From: Candidatus Phoenicimicrobium oleiphilum
GTDB lineage: Bacteria; Atribacterota; Phoenicimicrobiia; Phoenicimicrobiales; Phoenicimicrobiaceae
Length of the DNA stretch: 39,050 nucleotides
Reading direction: 5' to 3'
Assembly (NCBI GenBank): GCA_039638295.1
Contig: JBDIWJ010000012.1
Location: 1 to 39,050, forward strand
The translations under genes were made by a program, and so were the position numbers. Below the pieces are notes generated by a model. It ran no database searches. It was not told where the DNA came from and saw only the letters and a list, made by a program, of their open reading frames with translations. Shown piece after piece: positions 2,985-7,788 of this stretch; positions within the stretch are counted from its first letter, which is position 1; the number at the start of each line of letters is the position of its first letter.

Positions 2985-3200
2985 ATGAATGATAATGAAA
3001 TTAGGGATGCTCTTTTAAAAGCTGCTTATAATAGGGCAAAAGAGGATGGTAACATTGAAGGCGGATTATTTAATGTTTATAAAATAAGTAATTTGGAAGG
3101 AGTAGAAAAAAAGAAAATTAATTTTAACGCTGACTATTTAGATAAGAAAAATTTAGTAAAGTGGGCTACTATGAGTGGAGGCATGGCAATTACTGTGTAA
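2985..3200 (+). CDS. Small hypothetical protein, possibly a truncated winged-helix-like protein
   Basis: RBS AAAGGAGAG before ATG 2985; ADYLDKKNLV...ITV* resembles a wHTH wing, and KG follows the stop in frame. Confidence 0.5.
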   Translation: MNDNEIRDALLKAAYNRAKEDGNIEGGLFNVYKISNLEGVEKKKINFNADYLDKKNLVKWATMSGGMAITV

Positions 3201-3259
3201 AAAGGCGTCATTTATTATTATAATTCAATATAAAATCGTTATTTTCAGCTATTTTAATT

Positions 3260-3806
3260 TTTATCCAAATAATTAAACGAGAATAACCCGCTTCACTACC
3301 TTCTTTTCTAATCATTTCTATTTTGTAACAATCGTATCCTTCTTTTTTTCAGAACCGAGTTTTTTATTGCTGAAATCTTTAATAAAGGCATCGCTTGTTC
3401 CAGTGTCTTCGTAGGAAAAATCGCTTCCTTCCATTTTTTTAGCTTTTAGAATGAAAGGCAAGTTTACGTACTCGTTTGGTTCGGAGGAAATAGATCCAGA
3501 TATCTTCGGCATAATTAAGCATCAAGATAGCCTGTCTCTTTACCTGTTTAGGTTTAATATAACGTATCAGATTCTTTTCACTGTTATTTTTGCTGTATGA
3601 ATCATAGATAAAACTTATTTCTTCACTTGAGGTGGTAGTAATAGTCATTTTTACCTTGGCTTGTACTGTATCCTGATTAATTAATTCATTTACTTTGTTT
3701 ATAATTTCTTCAGCGGTAAGTTCTTGTCCGTTTGAGGTAATTAATATATTAAAAATAATATATTTAAAATGAGGATTATTTTTATAAATCTATTTTCTGA
3801 TTTCAT
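3260..3806 (-). pseudogene. Outer-membrane lipoprotein-sorting (LolA-like, TP0789-type) protein, frameshifted and 3'-truncated
   Basis: ATG at 3806 overlaps the upstream stop (ATGA). Pieces in different frames: signal-like MKSENRFIKIILIL; QELTAEEIINKVNE...DIWIYFLRTKRVRKLA; KKMEGSDFSYED; CYKIEMIRKEGSEAGYSRLIIWI. Confidence 0.8.
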
Positions 3807-4570
3807 AATTTTTCTCCTCTCCTTTTACCCATAAGATTTAATTTAAATTTTCTGATAATATCGGGAGATATTATATTACCTTTTCCAAAATCAAAGAAGA
3901 TAAAACCAATCCTTTTTCCTTTTGAGTTTAATAAGTGTTGGTAAATAGGGAAAGATATAAAGATTAAAAAGGATAATAGCCATACTATAGATACAAGAGA
4001 GGGTATATCTTTAGGCCAGAATGGGATTATAATTAGAGAGGATACAGTAGAAATGGGGAAAGCCCAGGCAACAGCCATTTCAATGCGCTGAGATAAGGGA
4101 AACTCAACTTCTCGCATTGATGAGATTTTCTGAAAATTATTATTTATGAAGAGGGGAATATCTTTAGCATATATCGGACCCCAGATTATTTCCCACCCAG
4201 TCTTGTTTTTAATAGTTTTAGCTTCGATGCCACTAGCGGCAAGCTGGGGTAATATTACTTTTCTATGGGATACAAGTTTTTCGATACCACTGGTCTTGAG
4301 GGCAGAAATAACACTGTGATTGGTAAAATGTCCTCCGGTAGCAGCACACCAGACATTGATGCCCTTGCTATTAGCTATGAGTAGGTAACAATTTATTCCT
4401 ATTAATGCTTTTTTTACTCTTTCTACAGTTAGATGGAAATTACAGGTTAAAAAAACAGGAGAGTTTTGATTTGGGTTTCCGATTTTAATTAAACTCGGTT
4501 TGCAAGGAAAAGGAAACATTCTTAATAAAGTTTCTATAATATTAATAATAATATAATTAAATATATTCAT
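3803..4570 (-). CDS. HgcA-like (CdhD-family corrinoid-binding) membrane protein; HgcA paralog, probably internally deleted
   Basis: IGNPNQNSPVFLTCNFHLT, GINVWCAATGG (4334-4357), ILPQLAASG, WGPIYAKDIP; only about 2 TM helices; no ferredoxin motif. Confidence 0.85.
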   Translation of the reverse strand: MNIFNYIIINIIETLLRMFPFPCKPSLIKIGNPNQNSPVFLTCNFHLTVERVKKALIGINCYLLIANSKGINVWCAATGGHFTNHSVISALKTSGIEKLVSHRKVILPQLAASGIEAKTIKNKTGWEIIWGPIYAKDIPLFINNNFQKISSMREVEFPLSQRIEMAVAWAFPISTVSSLIIIPFWPKDIPSLVSIVWLLSFLIFISFPIYQHLLNSKGKRIGFIFFDFGKGNIISPDIIRKFKLNLMGKRRGEKL

Positions 4571-4598
4571 TTTTATTTTATTCCTCTATCTTTGTTCT

Positions 4599-5255
4599 TT
4601 ACTTTGGTTTTTTTGCCACTAATTCGATAAAATTTTCTATATTATTTAATTTTACTGATTCTATCAATAAACCGCTTTCTTTAATCTTTTTTGGTAAGTT
4701 ATCTATGGTATGTATAGTAGTTTGGATAATAACATAAGTAATTATTTTCAAGGGAAATTTTGTTATCTCATTTATAATTTTCTTGAAAATATTTTTAGGT
4801 CTTACTTCATCTGCAATAAGGAGAAGACCTCCAGGTTTTAATATCCTTTTTATTTCTTTTAAAGTATTAATTAATTCACTTTCAGTTAATTCTGAAAAGC
4901 AAAGGCCACTCATTACCACATCGTAAATGTTTGATTTTTCACTTTCTAATTCAGCAACTCCCATTTCAAATAAGCTAATATTGGGGAGGAGATTTGCCTT
5001 AGTTGCGCGCTTTTTGGCAATTTCTAACATTTGCGGATTAATATCAATCCCTTTTACTTTTGCCCCTTTATGAGCAGCTTTTAAGGTTAATGCCCCAGTC
5101 CCACAGCCGAGGTCAAGAACCTTCTGGCCCTTTTTTAAGTGGGATGTTAAATGTTTATAGACCTTATCTAATTTTCCCAGGGTAAGAATGTAAATACCCC
5201 GATCATATCTATTAGGGGCAGATTCAAGTATTTTCATTAAAATGAATGTACTCAT
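4599..5255 (-). CDS. Class I SAM-dependent methyltransferase (resembles the corrinoid protein-associated CpaM type)
   Basis: VLDLGCGTG, GIDINPQML, RILKPGG; the N-terminus MKILESAPNRYDRGI matches my recollection of that family. Confidence 0.85.
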   Translation of the reverse strand: MSTFILMKILESAPNRYDRGIYILTLGKLDKVYKHLTSHLKKGQKVLDLGCGTGALTLKAAHKGAKVKGIDINPQMLEIAKKRATKANLLPNISLFEMGVAELESEKSNIYDVVMSGLCFSELTESELINTLKEIKRILKPGGLLLIADEVRPKNIFKKIINEITKFPLKIITYVIIQTTIHTIDNLPKKIKESGLLIESVKLNNIENFIELVAKKPK

Positions 5256-5758
5256 TTGAGTAACCCCTTTTTTCTTTTCCCTAATCTTGGGAAAAACATT
5301 GGAACCATTTTTTTATATTTGGAATAATCTCTGCCCAGTCGTTTTTCCAATTCTGGTTCTTCAATTGCCCTTAATTCAAAATAATTAAGTAAAATGAAAA
5401 GGGGAGTAAATATAAAAACGAGAGAGATTGAGTTAAATAAAATTCCTAATCCAAACATTAAAATAAAAACACCACAAAGCATAGGATTTCTTATATAAGC
5501 ATAAGGACCAGTAGTGACTAATTTTTGTGGAGGGTTAAGTGGTACCGGTGTTCCTTTTACTTTTATAAAATGCAAAATTGACCACAATATTAAGAATAAG
5601 TCTAAAGTGAGAGTAAATAAAGATATACTAAGATTTAGTGGATAAAATATAAACTGAGGAAAATGTAATATCTTATCAATCCAAAGAGATATTATGATAA
5701 ATAGTCCAATAAGGCTGAAAAAGAAGATTATCCCAATGGGAGTAAGAAGGTTTCGCAT
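5252..5758 (-). CDS. ICMT/PEMT (Ste14)-family integral membrane methyltransferase; frame extends 21 codons upstream to ATT 5821
   Basis: GTPVP..PPQKLVTTGPYAYIRNPM, EE..L..R.G..Y..Y...VP.F.P; ATGA overlap with the next gene. Confidence 0.85.
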   Translation of the reverse strand: MRNLLTPIGIIFFFSLIGLFIIISLWIDKILHFPQFIFYPLNLSISLFTLTLDLFLILWSILHFIKVKGTPVPLNPPQKLVTTGPYAYIRNPMLCGVFILMFGLGILFNSISLVFIFTPLFILLNYFELRAIEEPELEKRLGRDYSKYKKMVPMFFPRLGKRKKGLLK

Positions 5759-5977
5759 TTTTTTACTACCAGTAGCTGTTTTATAAAAAAGATTAATTAA
5801 TTTGTTGCGAAGATTCGTAATATTTGCCCCTTTTCTTATAAATATAGTTATTTGGATAGCTTTTTAAGCTTAAAATATATATTCTATAAAATTTTAAGAA
5901 ATCCTCTTTTTTGGGGAAAAATAATAAAAAAAATTGTAAGTTATTGGTTTTTAGATTTCGGTTAAATATTGATTAAC

Positions 5978-6007
5978 TTGACAGCTTCTTTGTAACCAGA
6001 GTATAAT
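5978..6007 (+). promoter_or_regulatory. Consensus sigma70 promoter of the abiE operon
   Basis: TTGACA (5978-5983), 18-bp spacer, TATAAT (6002-6007). Confidence 0.7.
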
Positions 6008-6032
6008 AAATTAACAAAAAGATTAATTAAGT

Positions 6033-6626
6033 GTGCTTAGCTCTATGAAATATAATGAGTTAAAAAAAATAAAAAACTTATATTTTACTTACCAGGATGT
6101 AGCGAAAATATTATCCATATCAGAAGATTCTGCTCGGGTATTGTGCACTCGATATGTAAAACAAAAATACTTTATCAGACTAAAAAGAAACTTCTATATG
6201 CTAAGGGAAAGATGGGATAGTATTACTTCAAATCAAAGATTGGAGCTAGCTAATATTCTTCAGGTTCCATCTTATATCTCTTTGATGACCGCACTTTCAT
6301 TTTATGAATATACTACCCAGATTCAGCAGAAATTTATTGAATCCATCTCCCAATACCGTACCTGTACCAAAGATATTGAGGGATTTATATTTAATTATAG
6401 TAAAATAAAGAAAGATTTTTATTTTGGCTTTTATAAGAAAAACGGTATATTTATTGCCTCTCCCGAAAAAGCCTTTATTGATTCCCTTTATTTAAACTAT
6501 TTAGGAAAATATAATTTTGACCTAAGTTCGCTGAATTTAGAAAAGATTGACAAAAAGAATTGTGAAAAAATATTAAAGAGGTATCTCCCAAAATTTAGAA
6601 TATTTTGTAAGAGGTATATAAAATGA
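6033..6626 (+). CDS. abiEi: Type IV toxin-antitoxin antitoxin, AbiEi family (likely start ATG 6045)
   Basis: N-terminal wHTH, PSYISLMTALSFY, IASPEKAFIDSLYL; overlaps the toxin start. Confidence 0.8.
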   Translation: MLSSMKYNELKKIKNLYFTYQDVAKILSISEDSARVLCTRYVKQKYFIRLKRNFYMLRERWDSITSNQRLELANILQVPSYISLMTALSFYEYTTQIQQKFIESISQYRTCTKDIEGFIFNYSKIKKDFYFGFYKKNGIFIASPEKAFIDSLYLNYLGKYNFDLSSLNLEKIDKKNCEKILKRYLPKFRIFCKRYIK

Positions 6627-7291
6627 ACGATTTAATACAACAAGAGATTTTTGAAATAGAAGTATTAGCTTGGCTCAAGAATGAGGGATTTCTCCGCAAT
6701 CTAATCTTTGGAGGAGGGACAATGTTAAGGCTTTGCTATAGTTTAAAAAGATATTCAGTTGACCTGGATTTTTGGACTTATCGGATAAAAGAGATAGATC
6801 GTTTTTTTATAAATTTAAAGGACTCTTTAAAAATAGATTATGATTTAACTGATGAGCAAAATAAATTTTATACTCAACTTTTCGAAATTAAAAAAGTACC
6901 TTATCCCCGCAAATTGAAGATTGAGATAAGAAAAAATGCCGGAAAAAAGGATTTTCAGGAAAAAATTGCTTATTCCCCATATTCTAACCAGCAGGTATTA
7001 GTCAAAGCTTTTACCTTGGAGCAGATGATGAAAAATAAGATAGAAGCTTTATTAGATAGAAAAGAAATAAGAGATGCATTCGATATAGAATTTTTAATAA
7101 GAAAAGGCGTTGATATTTCAGAAAATTATGAAGAATTAAAAAAGATTAGAGAAATTATTAAAGGGTTTAAAAAAAGAGATTACTATGTAACTTTGGGATC
7201 TCTTTTAGATGATGATACAAGAGAATATTATAAGAAAAATAAATTTACATATTTATTGAGTGTTATTGGCGAAAGGCTTTCTTATAAATAA
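6623..7291 (+). CDS. abiEii: Type IV toxin-antitoxin toxin, AbiEii nucleotidyltransferase
   Basis: FGGGTMLRL..RYSVDLDF; KIEALLDR..RDAFDI. Confidence 0.9.
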   Translation: MNDLIQQEIFEIEVLAWLKNEGFLRNLIFGGGTMLRLCYSLKRYSVDLDFWTYRIKEIDRFFINLKDSLKIDYDLTDEQNKFYTQLFEIKKVPYPRKLKIEIRKNAGKKDFQEKIAYSPYSNQQVLVKAFTLEQMMKNKIEALLDRKEIRDAFDIEFLIRKGVDISENYEELKKIREIIKGFKKRDYYVTLGSLLDDDTREYYKKNKFTYLLSVIGERLSYK

Positions 7292-7476
7292 GAAATGTAG
7301 TGTGTATTTAAGGGATTTAAATTTTATTAGTATAAAATTTGCTGATATTTATTTAGCTTGCTTTAATGTGTTATAATTACAAAAAATACGGCCTTTTTGA
7401 TTATATTTAAACATCGGAATTTCAAAAATTGCAATGCTCTTGCAGGGATACTTTTTCAAAAAACAATATATTCTAA

Positions 7477-7571
7477 CAAGATTGTCAGGAAAAGTTTTAT
7501 ATAAAATCAAAATGGAGCAAAAGGGAGATAGAGAGAGGTTTTGCGGGGAGTTCACTCCCCTGACAATCTTG
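7477..7571. repeat. 13-bp perfect inverted repeat enclosing internal hairpins
   Basis: CAAGATTGTCAGG (7477-7489)/CCTGACAATCTTG (7559-7571); inner GGGGAG-TTCA-CTCCCC (7545-7560). Confidence 0.7.
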
Positions 7572-7788
7572 AGTTGACTTATATGTAGAAGATTTTTAAG
7601 ACAGTAAAAGAATTTTCAAAAAGGAAAAGAATAGAAAAATAAGAGGGGGAGTCAGTTAGAGGATGTAGATATAATATTAGAAAACATTTATCAATTAATG
7701 TAAAAATAATGAATGAATTATCAATGGAGTAATAAACAAAGCATAAACAATTAAAAAATTATTTTTATGGAGGTTAGAAATAGCAGAG

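Follow-up and report, generated by a model that had tools for sequence, protein, structure and literature searches.

HgcAB, the mercury methylase, draws its methyl group from SAM via a Cys-ligated methylcob(III)alamin and needs no separate methyltransferase, and the C-terminal Cys pair of HgcB is required for Hg methylation (PMC11588087). The cap helix of HgcA carries the motif N(V/I)WC(A/S)(A/G/S)GK (PMC10087281). HgcAB has also been reported to dehalogenate halomethanes (2026 preprint). A fused HgcAB protein has been in print since 2015 (Podar 2015, PMC4646819); it is further described by Gilmour 2018 (PMC5893877) and Lin 2023 (bioRxiv 2022.11.21.517362) and covered in PMC7438021 and PMC10087281, and this literature already names OP9/Atribacteria among its carriers. 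Cultures of two species with a fused HgcAB, P. furiosus and M. methylutens, produced no methylmercury (PMC4646819, PMC5893877), although the authors of PMC4646819 state that this negative result does not establish catalytic inability. NCBIfam holds a profile for the fusion protein (NF043039) and another for CpaM (NF043040), a methyltransferase whose family name already records its pairing with a corrinoid protein. In the passages of fused-HgcAB and HgcAB papers that our search covered, no partner methyltransferase is mentioned, and the same search found no paper on CpaM.

Here we analyze a locus in a stretch of 39,050 nucleotides, referred to below as the window, from Candidatus Phoenicimicrobium oleiphilum. 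The window is contig C12 of its genome (G000, 91% complete), and its nearest named relatives belong to Atribacterota. A first-pass annotation had put the locus forward as a candidate uncharacterized system, a four-gene operon in which a methyl relay from SAM to a corrinoid would act at the membrane and be served by a periplasmic carrier. We consider it probable that the locus is instead a decaying copy of the catalogued cpaM and HgcAB-like module, which would transfer methyl groups from SAM to a corrinoid when intact and is likely inactive here. What we show directly is the family membership of the genes, an internal deletion, a dead LolA-like gene and a tight two-gene linkage.

Gene content and layout of the locus

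The four genes do lie in one orientation, on the minus strand, with ATGA overlaps at 5252–5255 and 3803–3806 and a gap of 28 bp at 4571–4598, as the first-pass annotation had it (Table 1). Its broad family assignments also hold, namely PEMT, class I methyltransferase, CdhD (PF03599, 68 bits) and LolA_like, the last recognizable as a fragment. While the genes and junctions of the run are real, two of the four genes are broken. The fourth, which reads from 3806 to about 3261, does not form an open reading frame: its coding pieces change frame. A scan of the operon for promoters and terminators stayed at chance level and gave no clear promoter. The contig assembled from X8, an RNA run, has uniform depth over intergenic DNA and over genes of either strand, which gives no signal of transcription. 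Sequencing runs that contain the stretch carry mostly oil-field, crude-oil and aquatic labels.

Table 1 Features of the locus, with positions in the window
Feature	Position	Strand	Evidence
PEMT/ICMT-family membrane methyltransferase, frame intact	5252..5818	-	PF04191 46 bits > 25; orthologs 68-81% identical
CpaM, corrinoid protein-associated class I SAM methyltransferase, 218 aa, intact	4599..5255	-	NF043040 268.7 bits > 180
HgcAB-like fusion gene, internally deleted allele, 255 aa	3803..4570	-	NF043039 328.4 bits > 285, profile positions 2-217 of 350 only
Junction of 381-bp in-frame deletion, 5-bp microhomology AAAGG	3879..3883	-	DNA compared with L006, L055, L057, L058
LolA-like (PF17131) pseudogene, three frameshifting indels, truncated	3261..3806	-	Frame breaks versus relatives; intact ortholog 177 bits > 30

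Read from the ATG at 5758, the PEMT-like gene encodes 168 amino acids (5252–5758). We compared the upstream codons across 13 sequences and found the N-terminal extension to be conserved, with an ATG in G004 at the position of the ACG at 5818, and this ACG is likely to be the true start. The protein reached no specific NCBIfam family, scoring 31.7 of 160 for ICMT and 21 of 270 for MddA.

Three indels separate the LolA-like gene from its ortholog in L055: 10 bp are deleted at one site and 1 bp at another, and 1 bp is inserted at a third. The gene breaks off near codon 185 of the 264. Its longest fragment scores 24.4 bits against PF17131, below the gathering score of 30 and short of an intact exported protein. 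Relatives have an MMPL ortholog (PF03176, 140 bits) directly after the LolA-like gene; this gene is absent from the window, and only its last 48 codons were found in the genome, on contig C42.

The corrinoid protein is a broken allele of the HgcAB-like family

The window's corrinoid protein had been called an HgcA paralog. Relatedness to HgcA stands, but the protein is not HgcA, and it already has a name as the HgcAB-like fusion protein. On the HgcA profile (NF040863, cut-off 275), it scores 168.3 bits, close to the 167.9 bits of the intact fusion P0002, whereas the true HgcA of L003 scores 397.8 bits. In a tree of 31 corrinoid domains, three true-HgcA rows, defined by motif and HMM rather than by culture, occupy a branch of their own (support 96/89, length 1.88). 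The window protein does not cluster with them; it sits among the fused proteins, which are not resolved as one clade, and is 90% identical to that of L053.

The cap-helix motif is NVWCAATGG, as annotated, with Cys75 as the cap-helix Cys, and departs from the HgcA consensus. In our survey, which includes the best 80 of 578 metagenome loci, all 92 fused proteins keep this Cys and have xGG in place of GK, the exact NVWCAATGG occurring at 54 of the 92 loci, and none of the 92 has a Cys within its last 25 residues; the same was true of 115 of 118 proteins in a second set, among the matches listed. Their first Fe-S motif mostly lacks the second Cys (CxxXxxCxxxCP), which few fused proteins retain; a three-Cys motif of this kind suggests a [3Fe-4S] or open-site cluster. 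Intact orthologs reach 45 of 99 bits on the HgcB profile NF040864, and the window locus has no ferredoxin at all and neither C(M/I)ECGA nor the C-terminal Cys pair of an HgcB partner. The predicted model of P0002 (pLDDT 71.9) resembles both CFeSP structures and the model of HgcA, from which we infer that the HgcAB-like fusion binds a corrinoid.

All but a few of the 119 other homologs listed are 365–402 residues long, mostly 378–402, and most carry Fer4 domains, whereas in the window allele the alignment joins residue ~231 straight to the C-terminal tail and skips 127 internal residues. Hydropathy and Cys positions show that the missing segment contained two of the four hydrophobic helices and every one of the eight ferredoxin Cys. 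The corrinoid domain, two membrane helices and the C-terminal tail are retained. Relatives 82–90% identical keep the ferredoxin and the full membrane domain, and among the 120 listed homologs none besides the window protein shows the deletion by length, the sole other short one, P0020, being a plain truncation. Judged by its sequence, the window protein is therefore a broken allele of the family, with the score and the cap-helix Cys of a member but not its fused ferredoxin or full membrane domain.

The lesions are not readily explained by misassembly. Single contigs from X4 (depth 70.7) and X8 (depth 55.8) span 3000–6100 with 0 differences and 0 gaps, no alternative joint is listed for the region in the run contigs, and the words of the stretch are present at a share of 1.00 in 13 of the 24 listed runs. 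Since X4 and X8 may include the window's source sample, they are not independent replication, but they still argue against a one-off assembly slip, and we rejected this reading.

We then asked how long the genes had been kept. What is left of the three upstream genes, 1,923 bp in all, contains 0 frameshifts, against three in the 545 bp of the LolA-like remnant. At the rate of the latter, 10.6 frameshifts would be expected in the three genes (P(0) = 3e-5) and 4.2 in the corrinoid gene alone (P(0) = 0.015). Because none was found where 10.6 were predicted, the upstream genes outlived the carrier gene; they were longer under constraint and may still be so. Substitution ratios cannot decide the matter, since pN/pS for the window's private changes is 0.20–0.23 in all four genes, the frameshifted one included.

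The frames left open upstream invite the view that the deleted allele still works without a ferredoxin of its own by drawing electrons from another cellular one, such that the PEMT-like, cpaM and corrinoid genes function together in this organism. The deletion is in frame and keeps the C-terminal tail, but chance alone would keep the frame in a third of deletions, the loss took two of four hydrophobic helices along with the ferredoxin, and the junction lies at a microhomology typical of slippage. The identical allele recurs in several oil-field runs, further B12-binding proteins are encoded in the genome (5 matches), and a CpaM–corrinoid fusion without a ferredoxin exists in nature (P0123); on the other hand, no other listed homolog shares the deletion and the locus is eroding in many kin. 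We regard a working variant as very unlikely. With the ferredoxin deleted, the LolA-like gene dead and the MMPL gene lost, the idea of a working system in the window genome is not supported. The allele is also a warning, as it would pass an HMM screen despite having no ferredoxin.

cpaM and the fused gene form the conserved unit

The window CpaM, a member of NF043040, matches its family profile along the whole length (positions 1–216 of 216) and is encoded directly upstream of the HgcAB-like gene. Its predicted model (pLDDT 85.4) carries extra hydrophobic helices and has yeast Coq5 as its best fold match.

We surveyed 97 loci with a full-length fused gene, comprising 17 of the 18 from genome contigs (the fragment L023 was left out) and the best 80 of 578 metagenome loci. 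The window's family group consists of 16 loci, 14 of them assigned on a fused-protein identity of 78% or more; because L079 and L080 were added for their shared flanks, the group is partly defined by context. Among family loci with enough flank, cpaM lies upstream in 16/16, a PEMT ortholog upstream in 13/15 and a LolA-like gene downstream in 11/13. Outside the family, in the survey with its best 80 of 578 metagenome loci, cpaM is directly upstream in 69 of 72 loci by script, or 70 of 72 when L087, where it ends 15 bp upstream, is counted as linked, but a PEMT ortholog is upstream in 1/51 and a LolA-like gene downstream in 0/67. These linked outside loci come from Chloroflexota, Thermodesulfobacteriota, Spirochaetota, Aminicenantes, Binatota and archaea. 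No third gene recurred when 109 ORFs flanking non-redundant outside loci were scanned with Pfam; the flanks hold scattered extra methyltransferases (L012, L113 and a divergent PEMT in L093) and otherwise unrelated genes. In P0122, a single chain comprises both CpaM and the HgcAB-like protein, with both profiles over cut-off. A 613-aa ORF in L130, considered as another CpaM fusion, was rejected because its N-terminal part is an off-frame shadow.

Erosion is seen throughout the family. In a set of 86 genomes from the phylum, G000 and G018 alone exceed the cut-off for NF043039 or NF043040; the apparent NF043039 matches in 86/86 are generic ferredoxin matches. Ten other family genomes (63–96% complete) have an intact-looking LolA-like ortholog (78–87% identity), adjoined by MMPL in nine, yet cpaM and the fused gene both stayed below cut-off in them, and no cpaM precedes the LolA-like gene in the eight with upstream DNA visible. 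In G023, G078 and G009, only the last ~30–36 codons of the fused gene are left before an intact LolA-like gene, and in two of these family genomes the PEMT gene now adjoins the LolA-like gene. In other kin, cpaM is broken in L053, L054 and L063, and L061 and L064 keep cpaM and the fused gene but have lost the LolA-like gene.

Because cpaM is near-universal outside the family, where the PEMT-like and LolA-like genes are not, and because the LolA-like gene persists without the pair, gene context identifies the two genes cpaM and the fused gene as the conserved functional unit. By the same comparison, the four-gene run is ancestral synteny of the family that is eroding piecemeal and repeatedly. 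The co-occurrence expected of the four genes in other genomes accordingly holds for the central pair and breaks down for the outer two, and the proposed conserved four-gene system with a periplasmic carrier is not supported by the loci surveyed. Nor is the system uncatalogued, given that NCBIfam names both central genes and the fused protein has long been in print.

Might the intact run of five genes (PEMT-like, cpaM, HgcAB-like, LolA-like and MMPL) nonetheless constitute a single pathway, in which a lipid or another hydrophobic compound is methylated and then exported across the periplasm, and of which the window holds the ruin? All five genes are full-length and tightly spaced in L055, L057 and L058, and the frequent PEMT-like and LolA-like flanks within the family agree with such a pathway, but the family loci are close kin and count as one event. 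The best matches of MMPL are HpnN/BstA lipid transporters, below cut-off; the papers on such MMPL proteins were, among the matches listed, all on mycobacterial MmpL. The modeled resemblance of CpaM to Coq5, the PEMT-family neighbors in L105 and L093, and the hopanoid genes hpnJ/hpnI located 2–4 kb away in L015 may point to lipids as well. Against these stand the near absence of both flanking genes outside the family, the intact LolA-like genes of the ten family genomes in which the pair stayed below cut-off, and the two loci holding the pair without a LolA-like gene. We judge a single five-gene pathway unlikely, and its specific form, in which the family's cpaM and HgcAB-like methylase belong to a lipid operon making and exporting a cobalamin-methylated lipid or prenylated molecule, quite unlikely. 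If true, the clade that is sister to the mercury methylase would thereby gain its first substrate class, and L055, L057 and L058 could serve as intact templates.

Another reading is that the intact module methylates a metal(loid) for detoxification, be it As, Sb, Se, or Hg under other conditions. Its Cys-ligated corrinoid chemistry would be that of HgcA, and true hgcAB often adjoins ars genes (PMC7438021). Half of an ArsP-like permease follows the fused gene in L084, L092, L103 and L123, the neighborhood of L103 also containing an ArsC-like LMWPc gene, but the ArsP-like neighbor is limited to about one lineage group. Moreover, CpaM scores far below the ArsM cut-offs of the NCBIfam profiles, the GK motif and the HgcB C-terminal Cys pair are absent, and the two cultured fused-HgcAB species made no methylmercury. 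We therefore give detoxification of metal(loid)s little probability.

Proposed mechanism and significance

Returning to a decaying copy of the cpaM and HgcAB-like module, we infer the following chemical steps for its intact relatives. The C-terminal ferredoxin would reduce the corrinoid to Co(I), and CpaM, docked at the membrane, would methylate the Co(I) corrinoid from SAM. The resulting methyl-Co(III) species, with the cap-helix Cys as lower ligand, would hand the methyl group to an acceptor that may be membrane-associated or a soft electrophile, beyond the reach of a plain SAM enzyme. The SAM-to-corrinoid relay of the first-pass annotation gains support, at the level of gene linkage, from the near-obligate association with cpaM and from the single chain P0122. 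Since HgcAB needs no separate methyltransferase, however, CpaM could act on another substrate. The acceptor is probably other than mercury, because no methylmercury came from the cultures of P. furiosus and M. methylutens, and halomethane dehalogenation by HgcAB broadens the list of candidate substrates for the fused clade. The family has inherited the PEMT-like gene and the LolA-like/MMPL pair as neighbors of cpaM and the fused gene, and loses them independently of these two.

The module is a known two-gene family, and the window holds a poor copy in which to study it. With both genes and their association on record and this copy broken, the locus adds little beyond the warning given above and a signpost to relatives of the same Atribacterota family that have all five genes intact. 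The substrate of the fused HgcAB-like clade bears on the evolution of mercury methylation, and CpaM is the missing reagent for a direct assay.

Comparison with known systems

One close counterpart is CpaM of NF043040, which the window methyltransferase resembles over its full length, in its position adjoining the fused gene upstream and in the LCFSEL sequence invariant in 16/16 aligned proteins; no difference was seen in CpaM itself, but its partner gene is broken. That partner is over the NF043039 cut-off, 90% identical to full-length members and shares NVWCAATGG with them, but is without the 127 residues that form two membrane helices and the whole ferredoxin. In intact family orthologs, the LolA-like gene is followed 7 bp on by an MMPL/RND gene of ~907 aa, and kin keep these two without cpaM and the fused gene, whereas the window has a pseudogene for the first and lacks the second. 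HgcA/HgcB and the intact orthologs have in common a CFeSP-type corrinoid domain, the cap-helix Cys, a membrane anchor and a ferredoxin partner. The fused clade differs from HgcA/HgcB in having xGG rather than GK, no HgcB with C(M/I)ECGA, no C-terminal Cys pair, mostly three Cys in the first Fe-S motif, a methyltransferase partner of its own and a separate branch in the tree.

Operon start and flanking sequences

The N-terminal extension of the PEMT-like gene is conserved, and it opens with ACG in 11 of the 13 sequences compared (window 5816-5818) and with ATG in genome G004. ACG is thereby a possible non-canonical start codon of the gene. The AT-rich element 5′ of the operon is matched on many other contigs of sequencing runs X4, X8 and X16, and at a few places within the source genome; it is possibly a shared promoter or operator.

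The neighboring AbiEi/AbiEii pair is accompanied by a 12/12 match to the sigma-70 consensus at window 5978-6007, and its synteny is kept in loci L056–L058, L079 and L080. The intergenic repeat, which has whole or partial matches (82–97% identity) on more than 20 contigs of the source genome, is MITE- or REP-like. The GT4 and sucrose-phosphate-phosphatase-like genes probably serve compatible-solute synthesis.

Features of the window outside the operon
Feature	Window position	Remarks
GT4 glycosyltransferase and sucrose-phosphate-phosphatase-like gene	867-2914	PF05116 (phosphatase-like gene)
AT-rich element	5871-5912	~40 bp; upstream of operon
AbiEi/AbiEii	6033-7291	type IV toxin-antitoxin pair; divergent from operon
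Intergenic repeat	7412-7572	~160 bp; internal inverted repeat, arms ~80 bp apart

The fused gene and its neighbors in other loci

L079 (5903-7075) and L080 share their genomic context with the family locus. Their fused proteins are just 65–67% identical to the intact ortholog P0002, whereas the flanking genes are 73–85% identical to their respective orthologs, suggesting a possible allele replacement.

In L084, L092, L103 and L123, the fused gene has an ArsP-like permease half on its downstream side, and the next gene is DsbD/TsoB-like or LMWPc (ArsC-like). These neighbors weakly suggest an arsenic link. In a Methanococcoides MAG (L007:4928-5617), a helicase-like fragment replaces the first ~60 residues of CpaM.

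By motif and HMM, true hgcA genes occur in three other Atribacterota genomes (L003:1043-2062, L186 and L187). That of G021 scores above the NF040863 cut-off and carries NVWCAAGEG; those of G048 and G050 carry NVWCAAGK and adjoin HgcB.
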